A DNA stretch of 58,704 nt, counting the filler, from Catajapyx aquilonaris (taxonomy: Eukaryota), in NCBI GenBank assembly GCA_000934665.2. It is 3 parts of 3 records of this genome, joined end to end, with 100 filler letters (N's around TTAATTAATTAA, not from the genome) between each part and the next. Parts side by side here need not be neighbours in the genome. Positions count along the whole stretch, not along the records: positions 19,636 to 39,098 come from JYFJ02006458.1; 2 more parts are not named here. The stretch is one strand, 5' to 3'. Made by a program: the position numbers and the translations under genes. A model generated the notes under the pieces. The model worked only from the letters and a program-made list of their open reading frames with translations. It was not told the origin of the DNA and did no database searches. Positions 19,636 through 54,349 of the stretch are shown here, piece by piece (the stretch's first letter is position 1; each line of letters begins with the position of its first letter).

Positions 19636-22280
19636 GGATGGCAGCCCCCAGAACCACCTCAGTCTCGTGGGTGGCCTGGAACATGCGGGGAATCTGCTCC
19701 ATCAGAGCATCCAACACCTGCCCGGACTCCTCCGGATCGCAGAGAAAACCGTCCAGTAGAGGCATGAACACATCCGCAATGTCGCTCACAACAAGCATCT
19801 GCGGCTGGCTCAAACATTCTAGAAATTACATAAAACTTTTAGTTGATAAAATTCCATCGAGTGATGCTTACCGAGGCAAATGTACAGACCTTTCACATTG
19901 TAGAAATGTACTGAAGAGCCGTAGGTTATGAAGCCAACTTTAACTGCCGATTTGTCCTGGCCATGCTCCTTGGGCAGGTCTCGGAGAACCTCTCGCATGC
20001 GGGCACACAACAACTGAACCAATCCAGACTTCAGGTTTGTGTAGGACACGTCGATGACAAAGATAAATGCAGGTGGCTTCGGAGGCGTGTTGTCCTGTGG
20101 AGAAATCATCCAGCATGTATTGCAAGTTACTGATGATATTATATAGTCTACACTATTCTTCAGGATTCAGTCTTCTCTTAAAATGTACCGTAATTGATGG
20201 CAGCAAATCATATTCAGGAAAAACTGTTTGCGCATGTATTTAAGACGCGGGGCAAATTTTTTAAAGCCATTCTTGATGGAAAAAAGTGGGTCGTATATGC
20301 CGACAAATGCTGCAATTCTCTACATTAACTCTTCGATCTGAGTGCACCACTAACGGTAGGTGTAACAAATTAATTGTTGCGAGGATGCCATCACACATTA
20401 TGATCTGGGTAGCGAGTTAAGTATTTTAAAACAATCGGAATGAAAACCGAACGTACTTGGCTCGTTCCTCTCTTATTTGGAAAATCAAAATAAAATTCTT
20501 CGTAACTGACTGAAGAAATTGCTTTTTTGTTCTTAAAAAAACAAGCACAGCATTAACTCACCCTGCAATAATCTTTTGTGGCAACATATTCGTACGTCCC
20601 CAGACACAGCTCAGGCCGCTCGTACTTGTCCATTCGTTGTCCCGTGTGATCGAGATGCTGGAAGTACTCCGGCGGCACTTCTGCAGTAGCTTTGCAAAAC
20701 ACACACTGGAAACGCCTCCCCCCATCGATAAACTGCATGAAAGGACACATGTACGCTTTGCACCTCACACAACGCACGGGTCCCATCTCCCCCAAATTCA
20801 CCACTGGCGGTACATTTCCATCATTGGGAATAGCCAACGGGCTTATGACCAGGCCGAAAGGTACCGACGTCTGCTTCATCATCTCTGGAGTGGACGGCAC
20901 GCTGTACATGGTTGCACGAATGAAGTCAGGCCCAGACATCCCGTTGTCACGAGTTACAAAATTGGTCGTGACCAACGGTGGAAGCTGGCCCTTGGTGCCG
21001 GTTACGAACTCGCCGGATCGTGACCGCTGATCATCTTGCATTACTTGTATCGGCGAGGGCATTTGGTCTGGGTCTAAGCGGCGCTGTCCCTGTGGCTGGC
21101 CCATTGGAGCCTGTCCTGACGGCTGCTGGCTCGGGTACGGGGATACTGGAGGCAGCTGCTGAGCACGAAGGTCGCCTCCAGGATAGCCTTGGTATGCCTA
21201 CCAGAACAAGAAGGTTAATGCCTGACACTTCCACAAGACGAACCGATGTATTACCTGAAAACCTGGCTGCTGTGGGAGTGGCTGCTGCGGATATCCTGGT
21301 TGTGGCGGTGCTCCCATCTTCGGGCCGTTCATGTAGTTGTTAGCGACACTGGTAGGCGGCATGTTAGGTGGCATCTGCTGCGGTTGGTTATGCGGAAATC
21401 CTGGTGGGAAACCCATCCGTGGCTGGTTGCCCATCGGCGACTGGGTGGTCATCGTGTTGCTTATCGTCTGAGTCGGGTATGATCCTCTGGGGTGTCCATT
21501 CATGGAGGTCACTGTGTTGTTCGCAGAGCTGACTGGGTACGGAGTTGGGCCGGCGTTCTGCGGAGGTCCAGGTGGAAATCCAGGTGCAGGTGGAGCTCCT
21601 CCAGGAGGCGGCCCATTCATGGCCGAGTGGGGCGGAACCTGGTTCATTCCAGGCTTTGACATTGGCGCCTGCTGGTATGCCTGTAAATATAATCACCCAA
21701 TGACACATCAAATACGCCTGCAAAACAACCAATATCTTACCGAAACTGGAATATTCCTGTTCATGTTCATCCCTGCCATATCGTTAGTCAGCTGCCCAAC
21801 ACCTTGGTTGTTCATTGGCGGTTGTACCATTTGTGGCGGCTGCTGTTGCGGTGGCATCTGCATCGGCTGGCTGTTCATCGGAGGAAGTCCTGCAGGTTGG
21901 CTGTTCATCGGTGGAAGCCCTGCAGGTTGGCTAGTCATCGGCGGATGTCCCGGGTGACTGCCCATTGGCGGTAGACCAGGTTGGCTTCCCATCGGCTGCT
22001 GTCCCATTGGCGTAAACTTCATAGGTGCAGGTGGCGGCCCGTTTTGTTGCGGCATTCCTTGAAAAAATGGTTGCGCCTGTGGCCCATTTTGGACAGGTCC
22101 CTGAGGTCCACCCATCGGCCTAACAGGAGCCTGGCTTGGGTTAGTTGGAGGCGGCCCCATCTGCGGCTGACTCGGGGGTGGGTAACCTCTAGGCTGCTGT
22201 GGCTGAGGCTGTGGAGGTGGGGGTCCACCATACGGAGGGGGTACATACTGGGACTGACTCGGATAGTACTGGGGATTCAT
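19636..22280 (-). CDS. Sec24CD: COPII coat protein Sec24C/D-like, 3'-truncated by contig end
   Basis: Exons 22280-21741, 21680-21255, 21197-20562, 20094-19890 and 19818-19636 have GT-AG boundaries and join in frame. Pro/Gln-rich N-terminus, RLDPDQMPSPIQV, zinc finger RCVRCKAYMCPF...FQCVFC, RPELCLGTYEYVAT, trunk PAFIFVIDVSY. Confidence 0.95.
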
Positions 22281-22365
22281 CCTGGAGCTAGAGAGAAACA
22301 GGTATCAATCAAAAGAATCGCAGCCGTGCCTGGGATTTATTTGCACGTAATCAAGTTTAGATTAA

Positions 22366-22531
22366 AGCCACGTTTACATGTGAGCGACTTGATCAGTGAT
22401 GTGCAGCAATGTACATCGCTGAGTGAAAGTAGGACTAACAATCCACTATTGCCCCAAACAATTGGTCTCATCGCTCAGCAATGTTATCGCTGCAAGATCG
22501 CTGATCAAATCGCTCACATGTAAACGCAGCT
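22366..22531. mobile_element. PIF/Harbinger (Tourist-like) MITE
   Basis: TAA-agccacgtttacatgtgagcga / tcgctcacatgtaaacgcagct-TAA, 3-bp TAA TSD. Confidence 0.75.
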
Positions 22532-24872
22532 TAAAGTCGAGTGGTCAGAAAATCAGGTAAAAAGACAGTTCAAGGTCGAATTCTTGAAAGAGCAAATGCG
22601 GCACACATGATTTGTGATTATTTTGCTGTTTAATACACTGCAGTTAAGTGACTCCAAAATTGAGAATGTGTTACAAATACGCACGCTTTCAGTGCAACAG
22701 CAGTTGCTTTACAGTCAACAGGATCAAAATCATTCATAGTTTGTTATTGTCCAACGCAATGTCTTATCACTTGCACTGCACATGGTGCATCCAAAGGTCA
22801 GTGTTTACTCAGCACACTTGTCAAGTGGGTGTCCTCCAAGTTCATCACTCGCTGTACAGTCACCATGCAAAGTCAGCACAACGATGTTCATATTAGCTTA
22901 GTTCCTCATAACTGTAAGCGACTTTTTCTCGAATGAAAACATTTAGTTATCGGCAAAACTGGCCCAATTCGACTGTTTATATTATTCGCTCAGGGCACAG
23001 AACTTGATATTTACATGTCTGGCAATCTGGCTTATGACGGGAAAAACACGTTGGGGTAAAAAGGCAACAAAGCAAGCCAGCAGGTGAAAAAACAATAGTT
23101 CCACATTCCTCATACAACCCCGACCGAAATGAGCGTCCAGAAAATGTTTGCTCCCATTGCACCTGCCGCATTGAAGTGAACAATGAACACTACTATTTCA
23201 TGGAGAGTGAAAACTCAAAATGGTGGTGCTTATGCATATACTTGCACTATAAAAGAACTGGCAGCTTCAAAGGCAGATGTTGCTCCAACTGATCGAAACG
23301 TTAATCAACGGACGACAGGCCTTGGAAACGCATTAACACATGCTAATGCATGCATTTTGATGAGATAAACTGCTCCAAGTACTACCATATGGTTTGCAGC
23401 CTATTTTTAAAAATGACATCGCACACTGCAAGTAATAAAACTAATTACAGGTAATCTTCAATAATATTTCAAACCCGATAATGTTTGTCGCTGCGCCGAT
23501 ATTTTACGAGCTCAAAAGGGAGATGCAATATTTAAAAAATATTGCATTAGACGTCCCTTACAGCTAATTACACCAAGGCGATGCAACCTTGACATCCGAT
23601 CAGCTCTGGACGCAACTCATCAGTTGCGAACAGTACCGTGCAAATAGCGTACCAGCATGTAGCGTTCTAACCGCACGGTGCGCGCTTGACCAGTCCTGCT
23701 TGCTCCTGCCCATTAAAGTGTTCCAACCTGGTTCCAACTCACATTAGGCCACGTCCCCCCATAGAACGATCCCATTTTTTTTTTACTTTCCCCCTCAGAA
23801 GAACCCATAGATTGACCCTTTTCTTTTTCCCCCCCACCCATGTTCCCCCCTTCCATACTCACCAACCCCTGCTGGACAACAATCCTTCTGGAGATGTCCT
23901 CCTCTCCAGCAGGTCCTCCTCCTTCCGACAATGAAGAGAGATTAGATGGCGGGGGACAAGTAGAAGCCCCAGCTGGTCCTTTCCAGCAGCAGACTAGTCA
24001 GCCCACTGCCACGTAACGACCATTTACCAGGAGGAGCGAAAAGGATTGGAAAAGAAGAGGAGGGGGGGGGGGGGGNACGTTGGAAAAGGGAAGGTTCACA
24101 CCTGACAGTTACGAATGGAAAGGACCAATCAGAGTGTGGCAGCGAGTCCGTACTGCCAATCGGATCAGGCCATACTTGATAGTGTAGCTGACACACATGG
24201 GATGTACGCATGCGCACTGGCCGGGCCACGTCACCCGCCACTAGAACTAACAGTTAGTTATTAACCAGGATTAATTAGCCGACAGTTAAATATTAATTAA
24301 CGAATGGTAGCAGTAATTAGAGCGACAATTGTCCACTAAATTGAAATATGGAACAGTATTGGTAACGGAAAAACATATGCGATGAAAAGAGACGGAAATC
24401 GTGCGATGTATGGAAAATCGATTCGGATTGGATGCGATATATCGATATGTGAGGGAATCGCTGAGCGAATAGCTGAGCGAGCCCCCACCAAAAATAATCG
24501 CTCACATTTTTATTTATTTATTTTATTTTTATTGTTTATCCCGTGATTAGACCGGTGCTCTCTAGTGGCCGGGGAATAATCGCTCACATGTACAAAGTGA
24601 CTTATATCGATAATTAAGGATATCACGTTCCGTTTGTATATATATATATTTTTTTAAACGATGCTATTGGATGTAAAACGCCTATTATTTAATTATATAC
24701 GGGATTATATTTTAATTATATTAATATAATTAGTCTGTAAAACAAACCGTGTTCATTTAAGCAGCCTGATTAGTTTGATGTGACGTCACTTTTCAAGATG
24801 GCTGCTGTTTAGAACGATCAGGTTTGCTCATTTTTGCGAGCAGAAGAAGAACAATATAACGGCGAAGGAGCA

Positions 24873-26476
24873 ATGAAGGGCTCGGTGTCTACGACTGAGG
24901 AAAAGACATCGGCTCAGATGCTGGCCTGCGTCACTAGTAAGTAATGTCGAGGAAGACTGCCTCAAAAGTATGGGTTCAAATTAATAAGAATCATTACAGT
25001 GACAAAACTGCCAACAGAAATGTTGACATGCAGGTTGGAAACACTGTTCGAATAATTACATTGTAATACATATTAGAACACATAAGTATAGAACATACTG
25101 TACATATGTAGAACATGTGTGTGTACCGTCGAGCAGGATTAACCGAGCGACCTTCGTTGCTTCCAGTCTTCCTGGGGTCGTTCTGTGTCGGGACGGCCCT
25201 GTCCTGGAGCGTCCCCTGCGTCATCCAGCTTACGGGATCGCCACGCTTCTTCACCCTGACCCACGAGACCTACTCATGGGTGGTGTCGCTGATGCCGCTT
25301 GGTGCGCTGCTGGCCACCCCGATGGCAGCGTACGTAGGGAATCATATGGGACCTAAGCGCACCATGCTGATGGGGGCCGGATTGTCCACACTAGGATGGC
25401 TGGTCATCTGCGTTGCGCATGCCATTGAGATGATCTATCTTGGTGAGACTACTGAGGGTGAAGATTCATTATGTTGACTGATATCGTATGTTTCAGGGCG
25501 CATCCTGACTGGTATGGGTGTGGCTACACTTTGCCTGATTGCCCCCACGTATGCGCAGGGTACTGGCGTTGAGCGTATCCGGCATGCCATGTCTAAGTGC
25601 TCCCAGGTCATGCTGTCAGCCGGCATCCTCTTCACTTATTCTGTTGGAACAGTAGCTCGCTGGGATTGGCTCTCGTTGGTGTGCTGTGCCGTTTGTTGCT
25701 TGCTCATGTTATGCATAGCCCGCCTGCCGGAGTCGCCAGCCTACCTCATCCAACGTGGGATGGGAGCAGCAGCTAGGGAGGCAATGAGCCGACTCAAGAG
25801 TTCATCCGACCAAGACTGGCAAGCTGACCTGGCAGATCTGTACCAAAGTTTCTACGTCGGGATACTCCCACCATTTAGAGCAACATTTGTGCCAATGTTA
25901 ATGCTAGTTCTGCAGCAGCTGAGTGGCGTTATGGTTGTGGTCATGAACATTGGTTCCATGCTGGAGTCCGTCCCAGCCGTCCCACTGGACCGAAAGATGG
26001 CTGCTCTGGCGTTGTCTGCTGCCATGACAGTGACGTCAATACTGGCAACCTTCCGATGCCGCTTCCAGAAATTCAAGACTGCCGCGTCATGCGGGATTAT
26101 GGCTGCTAGCATGATGGCTCTGGCGATGTGGAATTACGGCTATGAGATGCCATCGTGGTCATCACAGTTGGCGCTGCTGACTTACGTGATGGCGTCCAGC
26201 TCGGGATTCCTGGCCATCCCCTGGCAGGAATTGTCCAGCTTAACTTACGGTGACAACGCAGCAAGAAAGCACCTTCTAGCCATTGCCTCGGCCGTCTTCT
26301 GGGGATTTGGATTTGCATGGTGCAAATCGCAGGTTACCCTTGCTGATGTTACCAGCCCAGAAATGGTGCTGTGGTTGCAGAGTGTGTTCGGTGTGTTGGG
26401 AGTCATTGTTGCCATCACCTGCTTTGAAACACCTGAATCCAGGTTGGATGACAGTCAGGTTTTTGAAGGTAACTGA
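24873..26476 (+). CDS. MFS sugar porter, facilitated trehalose transporter Tret1/SLC2A8-like (divergent), 439 aa
   Basis: Exons 24873-24936, 25167-25442 and 25497-26476 splice in frame (1320 nt). Motifs GTALSWS.P, SWVVSLMPLGA, GRILTG, GILFTYSVG, LPESPAYL and QQLSG; multiple TM helices. Confidence 0.88.
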
Positions 26477-27526
26477 AGGTTGGGGTGAGCGTAATTGCCA
26501 AAGTATATGCGGAGCTGGTTCATCAGTATTTGACATGAAGCTTTTCTAGTAAACCATTACCAAAGCAAATGAGGTGACAAAATGAAGAAGGTGCAATAAT
26601 CATGTGTTCCTATTATGTTGCCAATGTAAAGCCAGTATTTTAGAGTCAACATTACCAGTAGTATTATGAGCGTTGAATAAAGTGCCTTGGAAGGTGAGGA
26701 GTGTAGGGTAATCTTTATGCTTGTTTTTGTGATAACAAAATGTAAGATGAGATTAATAATAGTATTTTTGCCACGTTTGTTAATTTCCTAAGTTAAACGT
26801 TAAGTCCCGTACGCAACTGATTTTTGAAACGTAGTCATTTCCTATTTCGTAACTGGGACCAAATACATTTGATTTGTTACCTTCGTTGAGCTCTCTGATC
26901 TTCATAAACAATTTATCGAGTTACTGGCATGTTGCAGCAATTTTTAGCGTAAGCTCAAGGTGCTCGATTGTATTAAGTAAATTGGTATTTGATGTGTAAG
27001 GTTGGGTTGTGAACATAAGTCGTGGATATAACATGTTTTCCATATTAAAAAGCAAATTTGAATATTGCATTTTGTAATGTTTGTTACTCAAGTTCATTAT
27101 TTTCACTATTTTGTCAGTGCACTTTTTTTTTTTTTTGAAAATAAAAAGGATTCAAAGAGAAACTTCATGTATGATTTATTAATTATTATATACGTCGATG
27201 TGATATTTTGGGCATCATGGATGGGTCCCAATAAAAAACTTCTGTAGACACTGACAGTTATGCAAATCAAATCTTTCGCATAAAAGATAGGAATTTACTT
27301 GATGTCCCTTAGAGAAGCCTTGTGTCAGTCCCAGCAGACACGTTTCCCCCACCGTCACTTACATGTCATCATTTTTGTAGGTAAGCACAGTGCAAGGTGT
27401 ATGATCAAGATGAAGTTTTCGGTGATGCATTTTTTTGCGAAATCCACAAAATTGTATGACCTTGGCATGGTTATGTCCATATCGTATGCCCACGTGCTTC
27501 ATTCCATTAGGAGTAGCCGACAAGTG

Positions 27527-29872
27527 ATGAAGGCAAACCGAAGTAACGTCTTATTGTATCTGGCTGCCATACTTCCACTGACGTTACCTTCAGTACTTCC
27601 AGTTAATCAACGGAATGAACAATCAGAGGAAATGGTGACCCAATTTGCAAAGAGCGTGTCCGAGACGCGTCCGGAGTGCGGCTTGGTCCTGGCCCACGAT
27701 TACCTCGTCCTGCCTCAAGCCATGCACGACCTTTTGACCTCATCTGGACGTCATTGGATAATAACTCGAGTGACCAACCAAACCATGCCGCTACCGAGTG
27801 ACAACCTGGAGTACTGGTTCTCCTGGATGCATCGCCGTACAGCCGCGCGTCAACCACGCTGCGTTTTATACGCGGCGTTCTTTCTGTCAGAGAATTTTCA
27901 AAACCTGATGGAGCACATGGCCGCCATGACATTCATGCAAACTTCGGTGGACCGGTACCTCTTCTGGAACAGACACGACTCGAACGACACCAGTTACTTG
28001 TCACATCCGCACAGCCAGAACCTGCTCTACAAAATCGGTGTGTCCGTTGAATCCGGATCTGACATCCGGATATTCACTGTTTGCTTCTTCTGCGACAGAG
28101 GCGAACCTCAAGTACTGACGCTGAATCCGGATTCGACCGATTTGTACCCGGATTTCACCAGGAACATGCATGGAAAGCACATGAAATGTCCGTTTTACTA
28201 CAAGTCTAATCCGGCATGGGTCAGACAAATGCAGGCTGAGTACAACACTGCGTTGTTTTTTCCTGATATCATCTTCGTTGACATGGCCGAGAAAGTTAAT
28301 TTCGACTACAATGTGTATGCCTTCACCATACCTGAGGGAGAACACTATGAGACCAGAGGAACCGATGGAATTTGGTGCGTACGAGAGTATTTTTAGCATA
28401 TTATTTGGATGGGGAATTGATCACTCTTGAAACATTTACTCTGAGAGAAACATGGGTTAAACTTGTGCGAATTATTTTAACATTAAGGTGAAGTGGGGTA
28501 AGTGCATACACGGGGTAAGTGCATACACGGGGTAAGTGCATATATTGTGCCGCCATATTGGAATGAAAATGGCTGACGACACCAAAACTCTGGGGATGTT
28601 ATGAAGAATGCCTGACGCGTTTTGGTGTCGTCAGCCATTTTCATTCCAATATGGCGGCACAATATATGCACTTACCCCGTGTATGCACTTACCCCACTTC
28701 ACCTTATTTTATTTTTTAACGTTTGTTTGCACTTCAGGTACGGAGCAGTCGGAGAAGTGCTGTACGGCCGAGCATACCTGGCTCACAGCACTATTTTTAA
28801 CGGAGATGCAGTGGAAGTAATTGAATATCCGAACCTGCATTTCCCTAGCTATGCAGCTTTTGTGACCCGCAAACCGAACCCTTTGTACCATTGGTACTCT
28901 GTGCTTCAACCTTATTCCTCTGGGATGTGGGTCCTGATCCTTCTCTCGTGCTGTCTGGCGACCATCTTCTTCTGGGTCATCATTGTCATTCCAAGAAGTT
29001 ACCACAACCCTTTCGCTCCATCCAAACCTCCTGTACACACTCTTAGCTACTCCATTTGGTACATGTTCATGTCCATGATCGAGGAAAACCCGAATCTTAT
29101 TCCATCTTCAAATGCGTCCAGGGTGTTCCTCGCATTTTGGTGGATCTTTGCGGACGTCATAATTTGCGGGTACGACACTAAGCTGATATCGTTTCTGATG
29201 CTTCCGGAGTTGGAGGTCCTGCCGACAACATTTGAAGAGATGGTGTTCTGGGAGAAGGAATGGCAGTGGGTCATGTTTGACCTGCACATTCCCTACTTCG
29301 ACTCAATTTTCAACGGAATTGAGAAAGAATATGTTGCACCTCTGCGTGAGAAGCTACAAGGTGTACCGACACTTGGAGAGTGCGTGGAAAAAGCAGGTCG
29401 GGAATCAAGAATGGGTTGCATTGTAACCGAGGTCTTCTTGTATGCATCGGTTTACCCAAACATTGATTTGTACAACCAAATTCCGGTGGTCATTACCGAT
29501 GAGCAGACCGGCACATTTTTCACTGGCTCTTTGTTGCCGAAGCACAGCATACTGGCTCCTCTCTTCAGAAGATTCACACAATGGCAACAGGACGCGGGGT
29601 TGGTTCACTTTTATCGCAACAACTTCAATTATGCTTTTTTGCTGGAAGGTCGAAGGATTGCGAGGGCAACGGGAAGGATTTATGAGGTCAGCATGGACCT
29701 CAAGGTTGAGCAGATGCTGGGATCCCTCATTTTCTTGGGGGTTGGATTGCTTCTTGCCACAGTGTTGTTTGTTGCTGAAATTTTGCGACATCGTTCACTT
29801 ACGAAGAGAATACGAAAGAATGGGCCTTTGGCAAATGAAGAAAAAGGTTTGCCGTCGCTGGGTCATAAATAG
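27527..29872 (+). CDS. Divergent ionotropic receptor (variant iGluR chemoreceptor), 660 aa, two exons
   Basis: Exons 27527-28374 and 28738-29872 (TG|G rebuilds DGIWYGAVGEV). Signal peptide, LQPYSSGMWV TM1, RVFLAFWW...GYDTKLISFL TM2, S2 lobe, and TM3 LKVEQMLGSL...FVAEI. Confidence 0.9.
28486..28704. mobile_element. Young hairpin MITE in IR intron
   Basis: TA-aggtgaagtggggtaagtgc / gcacttaccccacttcacct-TA. The arms are perfect except for 3 versus 2 copies of the 17-bp unit ggggtaagtgcatacac. Confidence 0.85.
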
Positions 29873-30100
29873 CACAAATATTAACAATAAAATATTATTG
29901 GCTGGGACCTAGCTGTAGTAGCACCCATCACACATGAAGGCCAGTTTAGTCTCGTGGCATAATTTTCCTCGCCTTCTGCAGTATACAGGGTGCCCACAGT
30001 GAACTTCTCTTCAAGCCTGCAAACAGTATTGTTGCATGAGATAGAAAAGCTGTAGAAAGTGTAGATAATAATTAATAAACAGTGTCTTTATGTACAGTAC

Positions 30101-30458
30101 CAGGGAGCATACACTACATAAGAGGCGCAAACTTCTGTCGGCGCCTTGGATGTTCGCGTCTCTCTGTTTGGGGCCGTTGCCACGGCTGGCGGCCATTTTG
30201 AAGTGTGGGCAACGCCAACGAGGTATAAATAGGGTACAGGCTAAAAATAGGGTCCGCCATTTTTGATGGTTTTGGCGGCCATGGAAACTACATGGCAAGA
30301 ACACGCGCGAATCAAAGATGGAGGACCATATTTTTGCCTGTATTTATACCTCGTTGGCGTTGCCCCCACTTCAAAATGGCCGCCAACCTTGGCAACGTCC
30401 CAAACAGAGAGACGCGGAAATCGAATGTTTGCGCCTCTTATGAATTGTATGCTCCCTG
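30101..30458. mobile_element. P/Galileo-like MITE, complete, 7-bp TSD
   Basis: cagggagcataca / tgtatgctccctg termini, long imperfect arms, ACAGTAC duplicated at 30094-30100 and 30459-30465. Confidence 0.8.
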
Positions 30459-31167
30459 ACAGTACCTTCATGTCAATAAAACCCTAGTTATATATCTGGA
30501 AAAAAAGGGATGTCGGATTTGTTGATGTTTCTATTTTTGGTCACCTCACTCAAGGATGAATGTCAGTTGGAGTTCCAAGTCAATATTTGCCAAAATGCGT
30601 ACTTTTTTGCTGAAGGTCATGTCGCAAAAAAGTACGATGCATGTCAAGACTATAAGTATATATCCGAATCGTATATAAAGTTTAACCAACCTTTGAGAGC
30701 TCCTTATGTTACTGTGTACCATTGGTATAACATTCATTTCATATTTACACACGCTGGTTATGCCGCTCCTTAGCCCTGATGCAACAGTAATGTTGTTGTG
30801 TTACATGACAGGTCGGGATGAGGGTGGAGGTGACCACAATCAAGAGTTATTCATTCTATCATGGCTATGGATTTTCTGTCAATATATGAGCGTGCCCCAA
30901 GGGGCTCGCTCATAAGCAATTCAATGAGTTACCTGGAAAGTTGCAATGAATTTTTCGCTTACACTCAAGGTGCTCGATTAGATTAAGCAAATGGTGTGTA
31001 AGTTGAGTTGTGATCATGAGTCGTGCGGGATATAATAGAAATGGTTTCCCATATTAAAAACAAAAACAAACCCTGAATATTGTTGCATTTATGATTATTG
31101 TTGCTGATGAAGGCACGATATTTACCTACATTATATTGCTAGTAGGCTAGCCTATACTGTACTGTAC

Positions 31168-31547
31168 CAGGGTGTATGGTTGTAGGCTGTAATTTGGGAC
31201 AGACTTCTAGGGTGAGTAGGAGATGCCTAGAGAAGCAATTTTCGATAGGACACCCATGGTCGCAAACACATCCCAACGGAGCTACCAAGGCCCATTAGTG
31301 TAACAATATTTCAATTGTTGGATGAAACTGTTTATAACAACTAAACAATGAGCACAATGGAAAACACAACAACATAATATATTGTTACAACAATGGGATG
31401 ACAATGGGCATTGGAGGCCCCGTAGCTCCGTTGGGATGGGTTTCAGAATACCATGGGTGTCCTATCTCAAATATTGCTTCTCTTAGGCATCCCCTACACA
31501 CCCTATAGAAGTGAAGTCTGTCCCGAATATTACAGCCTAGATACCTG
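31168..31547. mobile_element. Tc1/mariner-like MITE, decayed
   Basis: Inverted arms taggctgtaatttgggacagacttc...cccaacggagctac / gtagctccgttggg...gaagtctgtcccgaatattacagccta. Confidence 0.65.
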
Positions 31548-32316
31548 TAAATATTACATGAGCTTTTCTGCATTTTATAGTCGCCGATATTGCAGTAAAA
31601 TTACCGAAAATTACAGTTTTACATCGAAACCAACATTATTATTGAAATAAATTACATGTTAGGGTCAAATTCTTTTAAGATATTTGTCATCCTGACTCTT
31701 CAGAGCTTCCCTCACGACCCTTCTGTGCCGCATGTCACCGACAAATAAGGATAAATGTCTACTTCACCAGGACGCGGACGGCCTCATTAACACAGCCCGG
31801 TCACACCGTTGAACTTGAACTGAACCAGTAATGTCACACTGTTATAATTTTCACCTTGCAATTACTGTACTATACTGTATTGTACCTTACGCATACGAAG
31901 CACCCACACGCATCTATTGTCTCCCTTAGTTCGTAGTAAAAGATGGGTTCCTAATGAATTATAGGCCTATGACACATACTGTGCCAGTTTCATGCACATA
32001 TGCGAGTCAGCTTCTCCAACACTTCCTGCCAGCACGATTATTACCCGCCAAAATTTATGGCATATTATTTTCCACACATTCATAACAATTCATTGATTAG
32101 ATATTTTGTGGCAAAACAGCAGCAGACAACGCCACAAATTGAGTCAATAAAAAATAAGTGTCGGGTGTCCCCTATGGATAGGGTGCGAATTGTTTTGGAC
32201 CATTCGACAACTTACTTCACATGCTAAAATTGAGATGAAAAACGTTACCCTGCAATTGGAATTTATTTACTCTAGCACTTTCGGCTCCTTTTGCACTCTC
32301 ACGTGAATAAAGTGGT

Positions 32317-32332
32317 AGCCCTGAAAAGGGCT
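32317..32332 (-). terminator. Histone 3' stem-loop (H2A copy 1)
   Basis: AGCCCTTTTCAGGGCT followed by ACCAC and a downstream GTGAGAG purine-rich element. Confidence 0.9.
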
Positions 32333-32374
32333 GTTTTGTTTAAAGGGTGCGGTCGAGATGTGTGGAGGGCGAAT

Positions 32375-32749
32375 CTAAGCCTTCCTCTCGGTCTTCTTCG
32401 GGAGGAGGACGGCCTGGATGTTTGGCAGCACGCCGCCTTGGGCGATGGTCACCCCCGAGAAGACCTTGCTCAGCTCCTCGTCGTTCCTGACGGCCAGCTG
32501 GAGATGGCGGGGGTTGATCCTCGACTTCTTGTTGTCACGGGCCGCGTTGCCTGCCAGTTCGAGCACCTCGGCGGCCAGGTACTCCAGCACGGCAGCCAGG
32601 TAGATGGGGGCGCCAGACCCGACTCGAGAGGCGTAGTTGCCCTTCCGCAGAAGGCGATGGACACGGCCCACGGGGAATATCAGGCCGGCCCGGCTGGAGC
32701 GGGTCTGCGCTTTGGCCTTCGTCTTGCCTCCCTTGCCACGGCCAGTCAT
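32375..32749 (-). CDS. H2A: Histone H2A, divergent replication-dependent type (copy 1)
   Basis: Intronless 124-aa ORF with RAGL.FPVGR...NDEEL...LLPKKTE, followed by a histone stem-loop. Confidence 0.97.
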
Positions 32750-33028
32750 CTCGGTACGGTGTGAAGAGATCGGTGAGGAACAACTAGACGGCTAGAAATC
32801 TCAGCAGTGAATGACGGCGGGCGGGGCTTGGGTGCCCCTTAAATAGAGGAAAAAGTTCTAAACAAGGGCGCGCTCTGATTGGCCCGAGTGGAGCCAATGA
32901 GAGCGCGCGGCTGTAGGCGCTTGCGTACCCACTGCCAGCTATAAAAAGGCCACCAGAGACGCGCGAATCCTCATTCCACGCCTGGTACTCGTCGAATTCA
33001 CTTCGTGTCCAGACTGCTCCGTCTCAAG
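32750..33028. promoter_or_regulatory. Divergent H2A/H2B promoter
   Basis: TATTTAA (minus, ~32839-32845), two CCAAT boxes (gattgg, gccaat) and TATAAAA (32940-32946). The arrangement is conserved in inverted form at 36713-36998. Confidence 0.8.
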
Positions 33029-33391
33029 ATGCCACCCAAGACTAGTGGAAAGGCCGCCAAGAAGGTGGAGAAGACCACGGGCGACAAGAAGAGGAGGAGG
33101 AAGGGCAAGAGGAAGGAGAGCTATGCCTTGTACATCTACAAGGTGCTGAAGCAGGTCCACCCGGACACGCGCGTCTCCTCGAAGGCCATGTCAATCATGA
33201 ACAGCTTCGTCAACGACATCTTCGAGCGCATAGCGGCAGAGTCCTCCCGCCTGGCCAACTCCAACAAGAGGTCCACCATCACCTCCCGGGAGATCCAGAC
33301 CGCCGTCCGACTCCTGCTGCCTGGAGAGCTGGCCAAGCATGCCGTGTCAGAGGGGACAAAGGCCGTCACCAAGTACACCTCCTCCAAGTAG
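33029..33391 (+). CDS. H2B: Histone H2B, divergent (copy 1), 120 aa
   Basis: [12 protein letters not shown]...RKESY...KQVHPDT...[16 protein letters not shown]. Confidence 0.97.
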
Positions 33392-33424
33392 ATCCATCCT
33401 CTTCATCCAGACAACTAAACAAAC

Positions 33425-33440
33425 GGCCCTTTTCAGGGCC
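33425..33440 (+). terminator. Histone 3' stem-loop (H2B copy 1)
   Basis: GGCCCTTTTCAGGGCC preceded by AAAC; downstream AGTAGAGATG. Confidence 0.92.
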
Positions 33441-33950
33441 CAACACTTTTCTCAAGTAGAGATGAGCATTGTTGTTGCAACATGTGCTGCATTTTTTGGA
33501 CCAAATAAATGTATACCTGTAGTAAATAGCTCTTTCACACACGGTACATAAGCCCGCAGAACGGACGGTTCGAAGGACATGCAGTTGGTCAATGCGACGA
33601 TGTAAATTCCATGCGAAGAGAGGCCTGCAGTTGTAAGCAATCAAAATGGTGACTGTAAGTGTTATACCACGTTAATCATTATGCAGCAGCTACGTTCAGC
33701 ACTGCACAGCGTCGTCGACACTAGCGCTCCTTCAAAGCTACCATTACAACAATTAAAATCAATAATCACACGTAATTATTTGTACCACAAGGTCACGCCT
33801 ACCGGATGTGACGTATGTCGTTTTATCTTACGGCATGGGCGATGCCAATTACACTCTGTGCCAGACAGGAAATGGGGACTGGATATCATTTATTTTTATT
33901 GCAGGGTTTGGTCTCATGTGGTCTGCATCTCTCTCTCTGAAATATTTGGT

Positions 33951-33966
33951 GGCCCTGAAAAGAGCC
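33951..33966 (-). terminator. Histone 3' stem-loop (H3 variant)
   Basis: GGCTCTTTTCAGGGCC-ACCA followed by CAGAGAGAGAG (HDE-like). Confidence 0.92.
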
Positions 33967-34024
33967 ATTTTTAAAAAGCTTCCGCCCGGCCTCGCGGCTT
34001 CAACTTCGACATTCCTCCAATAAA

Positions 34025-34435
34025 TTAGGGGCGCTCTCCCTTGATGCGACGGGCGAGCTGGATGTCCTTGGGCATGATGGTGACCCTCTTGGCGTGGATG
34101 GCGCAGATGTTGCTGTCCTCAAAAAGACTCACAAGATAGGCCTCTGCCGCCTCCTGCAGGGCCATCACTGCAGAGCTCTGGAAGCGCAGCCCGAGCCTGA
34201 ACTCCTGTGCGATCTCCCTGACCAGGCGTTGGAAGGGCAGCTTACGGATCAGCAAGTCGGTGCTCTTCTGGTAGCGACGGACCTCACGAAGAGCCACGGT
34301 GCCAGGCCGGTACCGATGGGCCTTCTTCACTCCTCCGGTGGCTGCGGCGCTCGTCCGCGATGTCTTGGTCGCCACCAACTTGCGGGGAGCCTTGCCGGAA
34401 TTGCGCTTGGGTGCTGTCTGCTTGGTGCGGGCCAT
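34025..34435 (-). CDS. H3: Highly divergent histone H3 variant (K27T, S10R, R8P, K79R)
   Basis: Intact 136-codon ORF with a full H3 fold and about 23 substitutions versus canonical H3. Upstream TATAAAA (~34519-34525), CCAAT boxes and a TCATTC cap motif; downstream stem-loop. Confidence 0.93.
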
Positions 34436-34935
34436 TCTTCAGACTTCACGGGAGAGCAGAACCTTCTCTTGCGACAGTCTGAAGCAGCAGAATGATTCCT
34501 GCCCACGAATCATGGCCTTTTTATAGCTTCTGTAACCGGGCTGCTCCCAAAGGCTGCTCCAGGATTGGTCAAAATAAGCAGCCTGCTTATTGGTTAGATT
34601 TTGGCTCCAAACGACCCGGTTCCGTAGATGGAAATGCGCACTGTTAATTGCAGTACATGCAAATTGCCATTTATTTGCATACAAGAACTACTGTATGTTG
34701 ATCATATACTGTACGTTAGTACTACACAACACCTTGAGGCTCGGGCAATTTTCTTTGTCATTCAATGTAGCAGTAAATACTAATTGCTCGGTGTAACACG
34801 GCTGTTTAAGCACTATTCACTGCAACTAATATTAATTTGCTGCTGTTGTGCCATAGTAGCTATAATCAATTAATCAATCGTTGTTGCAAATGACTGAAAA
34901 CTAACAAGTTGCCATGGAATTGATTGTCTGGAGGT

Positions 34936-35732
34936 CCTCAGAGGTACACTGGACACTGGTGGGTCTTGCTGTACATGAAATAAGAATTATTCTGAAATAC
35001 TGGATCCATCACACCCCCACCTGACTTGGTAGGGATGAGAGTAATGACAACGTGGTAGAGTATGAGGAGTCATCATTCTTTATGATGAACAAAAATATTG
35101 CTTCTTACCTGACAAAGAGTTGTAGCCACAAAATAATACCATGCTTTGAAAAAATGAGGTACCATGCAATTTTGGTATTTTAAAAATTTGTTCCTGACAG
35201 TGTTAGAGAATTATTTTAAAGGTCAACATTTTGAAAGTTCATCATAGGAAGCTGTTTAGAATTATGAAACCAATTAAATAAATTGTACTGCATGGCTGAG
35301 GTAATGACAAATTTATTTGCATGTCTAAATAGCCTTCTGTTTAAAGCTGTTTCTGTCCCAGTGATTGATATTTGAATTAAGACCAAAGTTATGATGTGGC
35401 CAAGGAATAAATTGACACTTTCTTTTGGAAGCAGGCATGACTGATACTCACATTAATAATATTACCATGACTCATTGCAGTCATGTACTACTGTACCAAT
35501 ATGAATTGATTGTGCGGTGTTATGTGATCATATCCTGCAGCCTGAAAGATCAATCAGCACATCGTTCATGTCATCCCCTTTATTAACTAAAACACTTGAG
35601 AATATCGGGAACAATGTGCTAGCCTTGAAAAATGTTATTTTAGTTCTACCGGCACCTAAAGTCTGGGGGACCGGAGTTGAAGCCGGGCCAAAACCATCAG
35701 TCGGCTTTTTTCAAAAGACCCTTGTCAGGGCC
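34936..35732 (+). pseudogene. Putative heavily decayed histone (H3-like) gene
   Basis: Degenerate stem-loop GACCCTTGTCAGGGCC-ACCA at 35717-35732. Upstream traces: PQRY...GLAVHEIR (cf. PHRY...VALREIR) and GDRS-stop at ~35666-35680 (cf. GERA-stop). Confidence 0.4.
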
Positions 35733-36289
35733 ACCAAATGGCCAGTAAAGTGTGCAAAGCCAATTAAAACAAACCCTGCAATTAAATCCAATCCCACTCC
35801 AACCCTTTTTTTCTGGATATATTCAGCATGCCCATGCTGTAAGCCTTCAATTCTCAGGCACATCTGGCGAATGTGGCCTTAATGGGTTACCAATATCATT
35901 ACAGCCATCATTATTGATCTTAATTGTTACATACAGCTTTGAAGATTGGCCACTAGGAGCGCCAGTCTTGAAAATTTGCAAGGGAGCTGAACCTATCTGC
36001 GATAATACTACTAGTATCTACTTTTGCAAAATGTAGCTGCATAATAATTAACCTGTTACGGCAAGTGTTACGGGTTATAGGTACCGTAACTGTCAGCGGT
36101 TATCAAAAGTATTAGTTGCCATAAAAGATCTGGCAAGAAGCAGGCGTAAATTGGGCCTGGCAGTGCCCAGGCTTCTTCAACTTTTCAGCCTCTTTTTACG
36201 GGCAAATCTGTTCGTTGCCTTGACCAATTGGAATCTACTAAAACATGTTGCAATACCAAGTGGATATGTCTCATACAGATAAAAGTGGT

Positions 36290-36305
36290 GGCCCTGAAAA
36301 GGGCC
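36290..36305 (-). terminator. Histone 3' stem-loop (H2B copy 2)
   Basis: GGCCCTTTTCAGGGCC-ACCAC. Confidence 0.92.
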
Positions 36306-36340
36306 GTTTGTTTCGTTGTCTGGTGGCGATGAGGATGGAT

Positions 36341-36712
36341 CTACTTGGAGGAGGTGTACTTGGTGACGGCCTTTGTCCCCTCTGACACGGCATGCTTGGC
36401 CAGCTCCCCTGGCAGGATGAGGCGGACGGCGGTCTGGACCTCCCGGGAAGTGATGGTGGACCTCTTGCTGTAGTGGGCCAGGCGGAAGGACTCTGACGCT
36501 ATGCGATCGAAGACGTCGTTGACGAAGCTGTTCATGATGGACATGGCCTTGGAGGACACCCCGGTGTCCGGGTGGACCTGCTTCAGAATCTTGTAGATGT
36601 ATATGGCGTAGCTCTCCTTCCTTTTGTGCTGCTTCTTCTTGTCCGTCTTGGAGATGGTCTTCTTCGCCTTCCCTACCTTCTCGGCGGCCTTTCCACTCAT
36701 CTTCGGCGACAT
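36341..36712 (-). CDS. H2B: Histone H2B, divergent (copy 2), 123 aa
   Basis: [12 protein letters not shown]...[21 protein letters not shown]...TKYTSSK. Confidence 0.97.
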
Positions 36713-36998
36713 CTTCACACGGAGCAACTGAGCTGATCGGGATACGAAACGATCGTAACGAGATCCGGATACTGAATGAGGGTTGCCGGGAATATGTGGC
36801 CGTTTTATAGCATGCAGAGGGTCCGCAACCGCGTCTGGCCGGGTGCTCCCATTGGCTCCACGAGGGCCAATCCGAGCGCGCCCTTGCTTAGAACCTTTTC
36901 CTCTATTTAAGGGGCACCCAAGCCCTGCCCACCTTTATTAGCTGCTGAGCGCCTGAGACTTCTAGACGTGTGGTTGTTCTGCACCGATCTTTTCAAAG

Positions 36999-37373
36999 AT
37001 GACTGGCCGTGGCAAGGGAGGCAAGACGAAGGCGAAGCCGCAGACCCGCTCCAGCCGAGCCGGCCTGACATTCCCTGTTGGCCGTGTCCATCGTCTCCTA
37101 CGCAAGGGCAACTACGCCTCTCGAGTCGGGTCTGGCGCCCCCATCTACCTGGCTGCCGTGCTGGAGTACCTGGCCGCCGAGGTGCTCGAACTGGCAGGCA
37201 ACGCGGCCCGTGACAACAAGAAGTCGAGGATCAACCCCCGCCATCTCCAGCTGGCCGTCAGGAACGACGAGGAGCTGAGCAAGGTCTTCTCGGGGGTGAC
37301 CATCGCCCAAGGCGGCGTGCTGCCAAACATCCAGGCCGTCCTCCTCCCGAAGAAGACCGAGAGGAAGGCTTAG
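36999..37373 (+). CDS. H2A: Histone H2A, divergent (copy 2)
   Basis: 124-aa ORF differing from copy 1 at only two residues. Stem-loop AGCCCTTTTCAGGGCT at 37416-37431. Confidence 0.97.
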
Positions 37374-38095
37374 ATTCACCCTCCACACATCTCGACCGCA
37401 CCCTTTAAACAAAACAGCCCTTTTCAGGGCTACCACTTTATTCACGTGAGAAGGCGAATAGAGCGAGTGCAAATAAAGTGCTTACATTGTATTGCTAAGG
37501 TTGTCCAATTTTAGCTAATGAAACTGCTAATCGAGATACTAAAAATTTGTGTTCCAGACTCTTCTACGGGCAAGTCGAATTTTCTGGTCACAATCAGCAT
37601 GCCTAATTGGCCATCTTTCGAGCAGAAATATATAATAAAGTTGACGTAATTCATGTCACACTGCAGAATAACAGCAGTAAATATTAGTAGACGCGCCAAC
37701 CCGATATAATTATGTAAACTACTGTATAATATAGTTTTGAAGCATCCCAAATAACTCCGAACCGATCCGAATAATGTGGATATGCACACCAATCAATATA
37801 TTTATTAGCTACTTACTGGAACAGTCCAAATGACAACGACCGACAACCCAAAAATTTCCATTCAAACCATATTATTCGCACTTCCTTGTTATAATAATTA
37901 TTATTGTAATGGGGATCGGGTGAATTGGCATTTTTATTAGCGCGCCCATTTTTTTCTGAATTGTTGCAGAGCTAATTGATGCTATTTGGTCCAAACTGTA
38001 TATCTCAACGTGATATGTGTGGTAGCCCTGAAAAGGGCTGTTTGTTTAAGGCTGGGGCTGGTGGTGGTCCTTCCCAAAAGGAAGTCTGAGGAGGA

Positions 38096-38563
<468 letters not shown>

Positions 38564-39098
38564 TCAAGGCAGGAATGATGCTCCCGCCCCGAAAGTGTGC
38601 CCCTTTTATACCAACCGGTTACCTCCCAGGAAGCAGAGCCGGCCTCTGATTGGTTGAGGTAGTTTTTGCCGCCAAAATGCAGCAACCGTCCTCAAAATCC
38701 TGATACTAAGTGCTCACATGAAATTGCTAATTATTTTGACAAAGGTTTGGTCAAATAGAAACAAATAAAAGTATGTCATTGTTGCCGTGCCAAAAGGCCT
38801 GGCATAGCAACGCATATCAAATATCAAGGCTATATGGGCAGAGACAAGGTTGTAGCCAATCGCCATCCTGCATTATACCGTAACCGTAAATATTACCAAC
38901 AATTTATTTATGCCACCTCGGTTCATATGCACCACACACTGAAATTAACCAGACGTACTGGTATTTTCATGTAACAGTACATCACTACATGTAACGGCAT
39001 TATGTAACGGCAACTATTGACCAACAAATGAACGGCAAGAAAAGGGTGGGAAACAAGAAAAGGCGGGAAACTGCAATGAAAAAATAGTGGGGGGGGGG

Positions 39099-45431: not shown

Positions 45432-46005
45432 CTTTAAAAAACTAAATATTGTATAACAATCCGAAGTACGCGTCAAATTGCCTACTGATGAATGACACAA
45501 TGGGGCCAAAACGTGATCATAATATATTCTCAGAAACTGACGCCATTTAATTTAAATTAATGATCTCAACATTTCCCCGAACAAAGACCTGAGAGCATCA
45601 CAACCCGAGAGTTGTCAATATGTTCGTCAACAATATTTTTGCATAATTACATTCACGACATAACTGGAAATTTTAAATGCTTCTGACATAATTTGCACTT
45701 TACGTAAATGTAAATTTCACATTAATTTTTAGTATAGTGTGGAAGCATGTCAATAAGTATTTTGCAATAAATCATGCATGAATCCTTGGATATAGGTACT
45801 GTACGTGTAAACATGATTTGGAATGGGACGACAGGAAGAAGCACATTCTCTAGTATACTGCGTAAAACACTCATCGTTGCAGATAATGAGAACTCACAAA
45901 GCATATCGACATGAAAAGTTAGAATACAAATGGCCCGTTTCCACCGGCATAATTTTTGAGCACAAAAAGAAAAGCACAAAAAGAAAAGCACAAAAATGGA
46001 ACACA

Positions 46006-46900
46006 GTCTGGACACAGTCTTGATGCATCCCATCGCCCAACTCATGCTCTTTCAGGTCGGGATCGAGTTCGACCAGGACTCGAGCTCGCTCAAGGTGATG
46101 GCGAACTGTCATTATTGCAATAACGGTAGCGCAAAAGTGGTGCATGTCGCTCAATATACGAGGGGTAAAGCCATACCCGATTTGTTCCCGGATTATTCAA
46201 CTAATATGAAAGGTAGGGTAATTCATGGTGCAAGGCCGTTTGACTTGTCCAAGGAAGACTTGCAATACATGGTGGACAATTCACTGCCAATGTTTGGTCT
46301 CTTTTTGTTCCTGCTTTTGGCAAGTGATGCCCGGTGATGCCCTTAATTTCGAATGGATTCTGGAAGGAGCGGTAGTAGATGATGGTAAGGCTCCAGATAT
46401 CTTGTTGGCTGATGGTAATTATACAGGCCCAACTGGTGAAATTATTAGGGGAAGAGCAGAGATTGGGAGCACTATTATAACACTGATAAGTCCAGTTGTT
46501 CAAATAATTTTGCCTCTCTATTACGCTCAGATGACGTTTTCCACCAGGATTTCAAGACCTAGTTACTCCTGGAATTCCGTATTGATGCCTTACACTCCGG
46601 AAATGTGGGTTTTGATATTCCTGGCCACTTTGGCAGGCAGCTTTGTCCTTTTCGGCCTGCTAAGAATAGAGAGCACTTTCCGCAACCCTTTTCCAGACAA
46701 GGGTCCGTCCTATTCCCTCTTCCTCTACTCGGCCAGATACCTGTTTTCCACCCTGATCGAGGAAAACCCCAACACCATCCCCCGAGGTGACCCCTCCAGA
46801 CTCTTCATCTCCTTCTGGTGGATCTATTCCCTGGTCATCATCATCGGATACAAAGCCTTGTACTTCGGCTTCTTGGCATCTCCACTGCAGGAGGATTTGC
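46006..46900 (+). pseudogene. Ionotropic receptor pseudogene (5'- and 3'-truncated, frameshifted)
   Basis: Homology to the IR at 49449 begins abruptly at gtctggacacagtc and ends at gaggatttgc. A 10-nt duplication (gtgatgcccg gtgatgccc, ~46324-46342) shifts the frame. Confidence 0.88.
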
Positions 46901-47214
46901 GCTGGCTACAAGGTGGCTATATTGGAAAAGGATCTTTGCGCAGTGATAAGAGATTGTATGAAGCTTAGCACAATTATGGGAATTTAGCAGTTAATTAGAT
47001 GGGTTTCCAAGCAATATTTTGCGTATAATCGTTCTTTGAACCCGTAAAATTCACCGCAACGTTTTTTATGATTCCCGAGTAGCCGCACAGAAATAGTCAT
47101 AGCTGTTATGCTATGCACGGCCTAGAGTACGGGAGCTGCGCATGGATATGGCTAGAGCGGCCTTTCAATGCGGTTGGAATGATATATGAGGCATAGGGCT
47201 AACATGACATTCAA

Positions 47215-52808: not shown

Positions 52809-54349
52809 ATGTTCAGGGAAGTGTCGAATAGAGTGATTCAGATGGAGGAAGGGAAGGAGCCAGAAGAAGACAATGCATTTTGGGAAGTGTTGAGACCAGT
52901 GGCCATCTTGTCAGTGGTCGGAGGAATCGCTCCTTTTCCTTGGCCCAAGAAAGAGGAGGATTTGAAAGGGAAGTGGTACAGACGGTGGCCAACAATGGTT
53001 CACTTACTTTTACTTGTCACGTACGTAGCTGTACTCAGTGTTGATCCGTTGGATTACTGGACCAGTGCCAATGCAGATAGTCCGACGGGACATGTTACGG
53101 AACTAATTTTGAATGTCGTTACGCTAAGTGTCCCTTGGATTAATTTCATCCTTGCCCAAATGAAGGTCTCCAAGATTTGGAAACTGATCCTCCGCTTCTC
53201 AAATCAGGATGTGTCAAGTCATAAACGAAAGCTGCGGAAGTGTTCTGTGCTTTTAGTTGCATCTTGTTTTTTGTTTCCTTTGATAATTATTTCTTATCTA
53301 ATAATCAATAACGCACTTGAAGGGTTGTTACTTGAGCCGTACTCCTTGTTTTTAATATTCTTGTTTTGGCACTGTTATTTCTTACTGTTCGTCGTTCCTA
53401 CTCAGCTAATGTTCTTAGTTCTTGTTCACAGGTCTCGCCTACAGTACTTTAACCACAAAATTATACAAATATGTAATTCCCTCCTTATAAATACAACCTC
53501 CCACCAGTATAATGATGACACGGTTAGGGAAACTAGCCGTTTCTCTGACCTTTTTCATGAATTGTGCGCCATAGTTAACATTATGGACAATATTTATGGA
53601 ATATTCCTTATCAACACATTCTTAGCATTCGTCATTTGGATTACAAGTTCTCTCTTCTATTTACTTCTGTATCCAATTGGTACACCCCCCATTGTGTTGG
53701 TATTCCAATTCATTGGAATTTCCTCAATTGCATGTAGTGCTGGTGCACTCGCCAGTACTCTGGGATCCATTCACAGGCAGGTGAATATTGACGAGATCAT
53801 AATAATTATGATGTAGTACTTTCCGATGCAATATTGTTCAGCTGAGATTAACGACAATTAATTTGCATTGTGTGGTTAACACCTGTATTCCAGAGCACAA
53901 CGTCCTTACCCGACCTCATCAACGCGTATCGTCAGGTTATAAACCCTCGCATCAAAGCAAACGTAAGTTAATTAGCTTTCATGATATTTTATAGGCTACT
54001 TCTTAAGCACCAGACATTACGAGTCATTAAGAGAAACCCCATTTTCTGGAGCATCATTTCCGTTCAGATGAAGTCACTGATCAGGAGGATGATGGGTCCT
54101 CCCATGGAGATAACTGCTGCCAACTATTTCACAATCAATCGAAGTCTATTGACCTCTGTGAGTTGGGCTTCACATGTGTTTGTTGCCATCAGTGTTTCAA
54201 TATGTCATGTTTCGTTCACTTTCCAGATAACAGGTGCTGTGACCACATATCTTATAGTCCTGGCACAATTCAAAGGATCTGAACAATATGAAATATGGAA
54301 TAACGCAACAGACTTAGTGATTGCATCGACTACAACTGAGGGAACATGA
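52809..54349 (+). CDS. Gustatory receptor (7TM chemoreceptor), ~417 aa
   Basis: Exons 52809-53780, 53894-53962, 54068-54157 and 54227-54349: a long first exon plus three phase-0 C-terminal introns. ITAANYFTINRSLL and the TTYLIVLAQF (TYhhhhhQF) signature. Confidence 0.93.

Follow-up and report, generated by a model that had tools for sequence, protein, structure and literature searches.

A candidate lineage-specific stem-loop histone H3 paralogue with altered modification sites in a small histone cluster of Catajapyx aquilonaris

A divergent histone H3 gene, referred to here as H3v, lies in a window of 58,704 nucleotides (nt; filler included) from Catajapyx aquilonaris (GCA_000934665.2), in the part of that stretch that comes from JYFJ02006458.1 (positions 19,636 to 39,098). 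It belongs to a group of six dispersed histone genes, arranged in the order H2A, H2B, H3v, H2B, H2A, H3. The last of these, a neighbouring H3 gene (H3n), is situated 4 kb from H3v, differs from H3.2 at four residues (S28A, T80N, L109I, and I124V), and was used as comparison partner. The coding sequence of H3v and the control elements around it, of which the promoter motifs were read from the sequence, were located as follows.

34025..34435, minus strand: H3v coding sequence, 136 codons without intron, running from ATG to TAA uninterrupted by stop or frameshift
34589..34593, minus strand: distal CCAAT box of the H3v promoter, approximately 96-100 nt upstream of the presumed start
34564..34568, minus strand: proximal CCAAT box of the H3v promoter
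34518..34525, minus strand: TATA box TATAAAAA
34490..34495, minus strand: initiator-like TCATTC, approximately 32 nt after the TATA box, inferred start site
33951..33966, minus strand: histone 3' stem-loop GGCUCU-UUUC-AGGGCC, followed by ACCA (RF00032 match at 33926-33971)
33926..33939, minus strand: purine-rich downstream element CAGAGAGAGAGAUG with a GAGA core, candidate histone downstream element (HDE)

The intact H3 reading frame reported in the first-pass annotation was recovered at full length: the predicted protein matched the Pfam Histone family (PF00125) over residues 7-132 with an E-value of 5e-45 and aligned without gaps to H3.2 and H3.1 chains in the PDB (233 bits, residues 1-135). 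Alignment with H3.2 (1eqz_C) showed 23 residue differences (113 of 136 residues matching, 83%) and zero indels across the 136 codons, with 80 of 92 residues (87%) matching in the fold (residues 45-136). The changes in the N-terminal tail were R8P, S10R, T11N, G12S, Q19L, L20V, A24T, A25S, K27T, P30A, and P38A; the remaining changes were K79R, T80L, and D81G, together with I51V, E59D, D77E, S96A, G102S, T107S, L109I, R131K, and A135P. All 14 substitutions named in the first-pass annotation were present in this alignment, but its list lacked the last nine, every one of which is located in the fold or at the C-terminus. Differences affect 8 of the 9 nt of codons 10-12, and inspection by eye for a compensated frameshift revealed no convincing shift.

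Residue 27 of H3v is encoded by ACG and stands in the context S25-R-T-S28, so that H3v, in which K27 is missing, has the sequence hallmark of K27-methylation-refractory H3 variants. K9 is found in the context A-P-K-R, where H3.2 has A-R-K-S. The loss of K27, K79, and S10 follows directly from the sequence (T27, R79, and R10, with N11 at the adjacent position), in line with the earlier claim that both ARKS motifs and K79 are destroyed. Residues K4, K9, K14, K18, K23, K36, K37, and K56, as well as A31 and S87-A-V-M90, were unchanged in the alignment to H3.2, in agreement with the retained sites listed previously, and F104 was also kept. Residues K27, K9/S10, and K79 are marked in Polycomb silencing, heterochromatin, mitosis, and Dot1 signalling. 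R8 and S10 form part of the context of K9 writers, HP1, and Aurora B, and the replacement P38A, beside K36, may matter as well.

In histone H3, A31 and SAVM are associated with CAF-1-type deposition, whereas S31 and AAIG are associated with H3.3-type deposition. Based on its A31 and SAVM residues, the absence of an intron and the presence of a 3' hairpin, H3v was ruled out as an H3.3 replacement variant, for which S31, A87/I89/G90, and usually introns and polyadenylation are diagnostic. A centromeric identity (CenH3/CENP-A), recognized by an unalignable N-terminal tail, a longer loop 1, and approximately 50% fold identity, was likewise ruled out, since H3v has the length of H3.2, shows no gaps and retains 87% identity in the fold.

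The promoter and 3' end of H3v are those of a replication-type histone gene. The two CCAAT boxes, the TATA box TATAAAAA, and TCATTC, all on the minus strand, correspond to the CCAAT, TATA, and cap motifs described earlier. CCAAT boxes also occur in the promoters of H3n and of the H2A and H2B genes, while the TATA context GCTATAAAAAGGCCA is common to the promoters of H3v and of the more diverged H2B gene (H2B1). TCATTC is similarly placed in five of the six histone promoters of the cluster; the second H2A gene (H2A2) has TTATTA instead. No upstream ATG was found in the leader of H3v, which is approximately 58 nt long. Together with the intronless frame, the 3' hairpin, and the A31 and SAVM residues, these promoter elements support the earlier assignment of H3v to the replication type.

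The hairpin of H3v was detected with a score of 30.8 bits (E-value 1.4e-5 in a 12-kb search), which is below the Rfam gathering score of 34. The RF00032 match starts 53 nt, and the stem of the hairpin 58 nt, from the stop codon. Relative to the local consensus stem GGCCCU/AGGGCC, the sole departure in H3v is a C-to-U change that preserves pairing as a U.G wobble at the fourth pair; a U also stands just 5' of the stem. The predicted folding energy of -9.1 kcal/mol is close to that of the hairpins of H3n and the H2A genes (-9.0 kcal/mol). A stem-loop is therefore present as had been claimed, but its description as canonical was too strong, given the wobble pair and the score. A chance match is of no concern, because all six histone genes of the cluster have RF00032 matches, with scores from 24.1 to 35.2 bits.

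Each of the six cluster genes has a purine-rich element with a GAGA core 13-18 nt 3' of its hairpin. In H3v this element, CAGAGAGAGAGAUG, is a putative histone downstream element that would pair with U7; the HDE of the first-pass annotation thus corresponds to a real, similarly spaced motif, whose identity as an HDE is inferred. Further downstream, AATAAA-like signals occur 40-110 nt 3' of the hairpins of several cluster genes, at 33890-33915 (minus strand) for H3v and at equivalent places after H3n, H2B1, and both H2A genes. A GGACCAAAT-like motif was observed 3' of the downstream element in H3n and H2B1, and GAGACCAAAC in H3v. These signals and the shared motif may act as reserve sites of polyadenylation or as a common terminator element.

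Selection on H3v was investigated by comparison with H3n. Divergence amounted to 0.11 at non-synonymous (dN) and 0.57 at synonymous sites (dS), which corresponds to a dN/dS of 0.19. The comparison of fold and tail proposed in the first-pass annotation, carried out here against H3n, yielded values of 0.18 and 0.20, respectively, both far below 1. The 72 nt differences between the two genes were split 19/12/41 over the three codon positions and caused 24 amino-acid changes. Under a random-mutation null, in which 72 changes were placed at random on H3n, 47.4 ± 3.3 amino-acid changes were expected, and none of 20000 simulations yielded 24 or fewer (minimum 34).

A second test, based on BLOSUM62 scores, addressed the possibility that a long period of constraint had lately given way to neutral evolution. 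The 11 H3v-specific replacements in the fold, mostly I/V, E/D, K/R, or S/A/T/G swaps, had a mean score of +0.91 versus -0.44 ± 0.48 under the null, a value reached by 16 of 5000 draws. In contrast, the 11 tail replacements had a mean score of -0.55 versus -0.60 under the null, reached by 2413 of 5000 draws. These results indicated that replacements in the fold were filtered by selection and that those in the tail were not detectably so. The fold of H3v has been under selection. The earlier statement that the gene is not a pseudogene is accordingly upheld with respect to a long-dead copy, which is excluded by the dN/dS of 0.19, the simulations, and the conservative fold replacements. Marks of a processed or decaying pseudogene were lacking in the frame, the control elements, and the fold: stops and indels are absent, every control element is present, and the fold replacements are non-random, whereas the random-like tail replacements leave relaxed constraint on the tail standing. 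Selective loss of modification sites, as proposed originally, was not borne out: the tail replacements are random-like, and the retention of seven of eight tail lysines is as expected by chance (P 0.34).

Sequence identity between the flanks of H3v and H3n was near random, at 60% upstream (50% for shuffled sequence) and 54% downstream (47%), a comparison that is less informative if H3v was recently copied from an unseen gene elsewhere. Despite these near-random flanks, the CCAAT, TATA, TCATTC, hairpin, and GAGA elements are all retained in both genes. Over residues 108-123, 16 consecutive codons are nucleotide-identical between H3v (34061-34111) and H3n (38132-38182), while dS is approximately 0.4-0.9 elsewhere; this patch may reflect gene conversion or a mosaic history.

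The first-pass annotation described H3v without its cluster context. Its account of the gene itself stands, but H3v is part of an H4-less mini-cluster whose other members, listed below, are mildly to clearly diverged.

32375..32749, minus strand: H2A1, divergently paired with H2B1; hairpin at 32292-32337, 24.1 bits
33029..33391, plus strand: H2B1, convergent with H3v; hairpin at 33420-33464, 27.4 bits
36341..36712, minus strand: H2B2; hairpin at 36264-36310, 35.2 bits (no other hairpin of the cluster exceeds the gathering score)
36999..37373, plus strand: H2A2; hairpin at 37411-37456, 24.7 bits
38096..38506, minus strand: H3n; hairpin at 37999-38044, 30.8 bits

The divergent H2A-H2B pair forms an inverted duplication (32284-33404 versus 36328-37464), whose arms are unequally conserved, with 96% identity over H2A including its 3' end, 87% over H2B, and 84% over the shared promoter. 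Alignment with the H2B chain 6pwe_D, which we take to be from Drosophila, gave 197 bits for H2B1 and 217 bits for H2B2. The tail of H2B1 is shorter and reshuffled, and its hairpin is followed by CAAC rather than ACCA. In both H2A proteins, I or T replaces the Q of AGLQFPVGR, and several more departures from human type 1-B/E H2A (5z23_C) were observed. H3n, for its part, has lost the S28 phosphorylation site beside K27. The stems of the H3n hairpin and of both H2A hairpins begin with an A-U pair (AGCCCU/AGGGCU) and are thereby changed on both sides relative to GGCCCU/AGGGCC in the H2B genes.

The cluster contains neither H4 nor H1, and no H4 was found among the 48 open reading frames (ORFs) of at least 90 amino acids. 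The 20 spacer ORFs at 34440-36330 had no Pfam matches, and a search for short H4 motifs across the whole window returned one chance match only. In the spacer between the histone units, a gene-less RF00032 match at 35712-35757 (plus strand; 17.5 bits, E-value 1.3) is probably due to chance. Other genes around the cluster in the window are a Sec24 exon, a sugar transporter, several Lig_chan (ionotropic-receptor-like) genes, and a 7tm_7 chemoreceptor, the last two groups having been identified with Pfam.

27302-29872, 45996-46968, 49449-51404, and 57355-58557: single-exon Lig_chan tandem family, some members apparently partial
52809-53816: 7tm_7 chemoreceptor ORF

For a Lig_chan member of 651 amino acids, no relative was found at an E-value of 1e-10 or better in a large protein collection. 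Given these surroundings, the cluster is not the main tandem histone array. The diverged H2B copies and the second H3 fit either a specialised variant cluster or a set of relaxed orphon copies.

Searches for relatives of H3v revealed no orthologue. In a whole-protein search, in which long fused H3 models took up much of the match list, none of 120 proteins exceeded 86% identity to H3v among the matches listed. A tail-only search (44 candidates, 39 matches) yielded no match above 76% identity, the level of canonical H3. A metagenome scan with H3v residues 1-51 gave at least 596 pattern matches and 158 relatives, and none of the 80 loci kept exceeded 78% identity, again that of canonical H3, among the matches listed. 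None of the cluster's six histone proteins was present as an exact match in a protein collection. The orthologues called for by the first-pass annotation were thus missing within these identity limits, which may reflect poor sampling of the lineage. Among 142 in-register H3 units drawn from 157 retrieved proteins, residue 27 was K in 137, R in four, A in one, and T in none, and ARKS was present at positions 7-10 in 136.

Few sequencing runs contain H3v. At least half of its words (0.54-0.80) were found in four of the 24 runs listed, all four being DNA runs that come from a single sample, probably that of the assembly itself. H3v was found in no RNA run: the other 20 runs, including six recorded as RNA and those presumed to be RNA, shared only 0.05-0.07 of the H3v words. 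We take these to be conserved H3 words of other organisms, which constitute evidence of neither expression nor habitat.

We interpret H3v as a working, lineage-restricted, replication-type H3 paralogue whose fold is constrained and whose tail is relaxed, located in a small dispersed cluster of diverged histone genes, and assign this reading a probability of roughly 0.55. Several observations weigh against it. In addition to the hairpin score below the gathering score, the random-like tail replacements, the empty whole-protein, tail-only, and metagenome searches, and the RNA runs without H3v, these concern codon usage and the state of the rest of the cluster. GC content at third codon positions was 0.80 in H3v, the lowest of the six cluster genes (0.82-0.89 in the others), and the differences between H3v and H3n lean from GC to AT (31 versus 15), which together suggests weaker codon selection on H3v. 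H2B1 is changed at conserved fold residues, with R for G in HPDTG and N-S for H-Y in AHYNKR, and dN/dS between H2B1 and H2B2 was 0.55 (0.39 in the fold), as compared to 0.076 between H2A1 and H2A2. Given the changes in H2B1 and the H2B value, constraint may be relaxed across the unit as a whole. Moreover, an open frame survived in 4.5, 10.7, and 19.9% of neutral simulations with 72, 50, and 36 changes, respectively; because 4.5-20% of simulated neutral copies remain open, an intact frame by itself is weak evidence of function.

All but the first of these points would also be expected if H3v were a decaying orphon, that is, a redundant copy off the main array that escaped concerted evolution, is drifting toward a pseudogene, and is still open for lack of time. 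The loss of ACC after the hairpin of H2B1 and the position of an H4-less cluster among fast-evolving chemoreceptor genes agree with such a history. It is possible that the synonymous divergence is older than a recent phase of neutral evolution; the synonymous differences could then stem from an earlier constrained phase and leave approximately 31 non-synonymous changes for the later, neutral one. However, fold replacements far more conservative than random (16 of 5000 draws) are unlike the product of a purely neutral phase, and the fold dN/dS is 0.18. In addition, 72 differences have left 411 nt without indel or stop, every short control element is retained, and the only change in the hairpin keeps its pairing. 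We regard a decaying orphon as the main rival reading, though on the unlikely side. It is highly improbable that H3v is simply the bulk replicative H3 of a species with unusual histones: although its gene build is of the replication type and unusual sequences are also seen in the other histones of the window, H3n, only four residues from H3.2, lies close by, a single copy outside the tandem array is unlikely to supply bulk H3, and the retrieved H3 units almost always have K27 and ARKS and never T27. Equally improbable is an assembly or sequencing artefact, such as a collapsed or chimeric histone copy, to which the single sample and the partial word coverage (0.54-0.80) of the runs holding H3v might point. 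Errors would not follow the 19/12/41 codon pattern with the frame kept, Logan contigs of the four runs hold most of the words, and H3v is flanked by unique sequence with its own promoter.

If H3v is a working paralogue, it would be transcribed from its own CCAAT/TATA/initiator promoter into an unspliced mRNA that ends at the 3' hairpin via the SLBP/U7 pathway. The protein would pair with ordinary H4 encoded elsewhere and, with A31 and SAVM, would be deposited in the manner of H3.1 and H3.2. Its fold is held by selection, whereas its tail is nearly free to evolve. Judging from comparable diverged clusters with stem-loops, H3v is probably expressed in a restricted setting, such as the germline or early embryo. 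With T27 and R79, no PRC2 or Dot1 lysine methylation could occur at these positions if the protein is made, and nucleosomes containing H3v would be devoid of K27 methylation and acetylation, K79 methylation, and S10/T11 phosphorylation. These losses may be a selected function of H3v, but the tail pattern is indistinguishable from drift. A more far-reaching proposal, which we consider improbable, is that H3v, probably together with H2B1, forms a stage-specific (germline or early-embryo), replication-coupled nucleosome set that is refractory to H3K27me3, H3K79me, and H3S10/T11 phosphorylation and a poor substrate for H3K9me and HP1. If true, it would be an animal, stem-loop-type counterpart of plant H3.10 and H3.15 that wipes or blocks Polycomb and heterochromatin memory over one round of DNA replication.

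Histone orphons, known from older sea urchin and Drosophila literature, are dispersed solitary copies of tandem histone genes. Like these, H3v is located outside a tandem array among ordinary genes and has diverged from the array sequence. Orphons are, however, defined by location rather than function, and in H3v the frame is still open, with its control elements intact and its fold constrained. The mammalian testis variant H3.4/H3t is of the replication-dependent gene type and is located within histone clusters. It resembles H3v in gene type and is tissue-restricted. It is named in the available portion of PMC8015243, and mammalian H3ts carry, according to the accessible text of PMC3156773, one tail and two fold changes, as compared to 23 changes in H3v, with loss of K27, K79, and S10.

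The divergent H3t.1 and H3t.2 of Oikopleura dioica, whose stem-loop is fully conserved, are encoded in co-regulated, male-specific histone clusters, and isoforms with multiple amino-acid changes are commonly male-specific in this species, as far as the consulted sections of the report extend (Moosmann et al., 2011, PMC3156773). H3v is similarly divergent, has kept its 3' stem-loop, and is located in a small cluster with other divergent core histones. In contrast, Oikopleura is a urochordate for which expression and sperm peptides have been shown, whereas H3v is known from sequence; its cluster includes an H4t, whereas that of H3v has no H4. Loss of K27 is not reported for Oikopleura H3t in PMC3156773, which was found to contain no mention of K27.

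Closer parallels for the missing K27 were found in plants. Arabidopsis H3.15 (HTR15) lacks K27 and dilutes H3K27me3 (Yan et al., 2020, as cited in the available part of PMC10199984), and the sperm histone H3.10, altered near K27, contributes to the loss of H3K27me3 in sperm (Borg et al., 2020, as cited in the corresponding part of PMC8015243). T27 of H3v likewise escapes K27 methylation, and H3v would work in the same way if expressed. Unlike H3v, with its A31, SAVM, and stem-loop, these plant proteins are H3.3-like; H3v moreover loses K79, S10, T11, and R8. H3v is not kin to H3.15 or H3.10 by descent and is convergent with them at best. Human H3.5, a young, lineage-specific, testis-high variant, shares with H3v the absence of a lysine at the K79 position, where it has Asn78, and lacks one of K36/K37 (PMC4714512, in the part available). 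According to the same text it is derived from H3.3, keeps K27, and owes its nucleosome instability to L103, whereas H3v has R79 and F104. No natural animal or arthropod H3 with K27T, and no replication-type H3 without K27, was found in the open-access text searched, and no arthropod case was found in the accessible portion of a mollusc survey (PMC12210499). The earlier statement that no arthropod equivalent has been described agrees with this outcome, although close parallels exist outside arthropods.

Present evidence from the sequence favours a working H3v gene, which makes it a well-defined candidate, best classed with lineage-specific stem-loop H3 paralogues whose modification sites are altered. 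Few proteins are as conserved as histone H3. If the interpretation of H3v as a working paralogue is correct, a natural, replication-deposited H3 without the K27, K9/S10, and K79 sites would constitute a built-in genetic test of these marks in an animal and, among arthropods, a counterpart of the H3K27me3-erasing variants of plants. As a mere drifting copy, H3v would still show how far the H3 tail can drift under a constrained fold.

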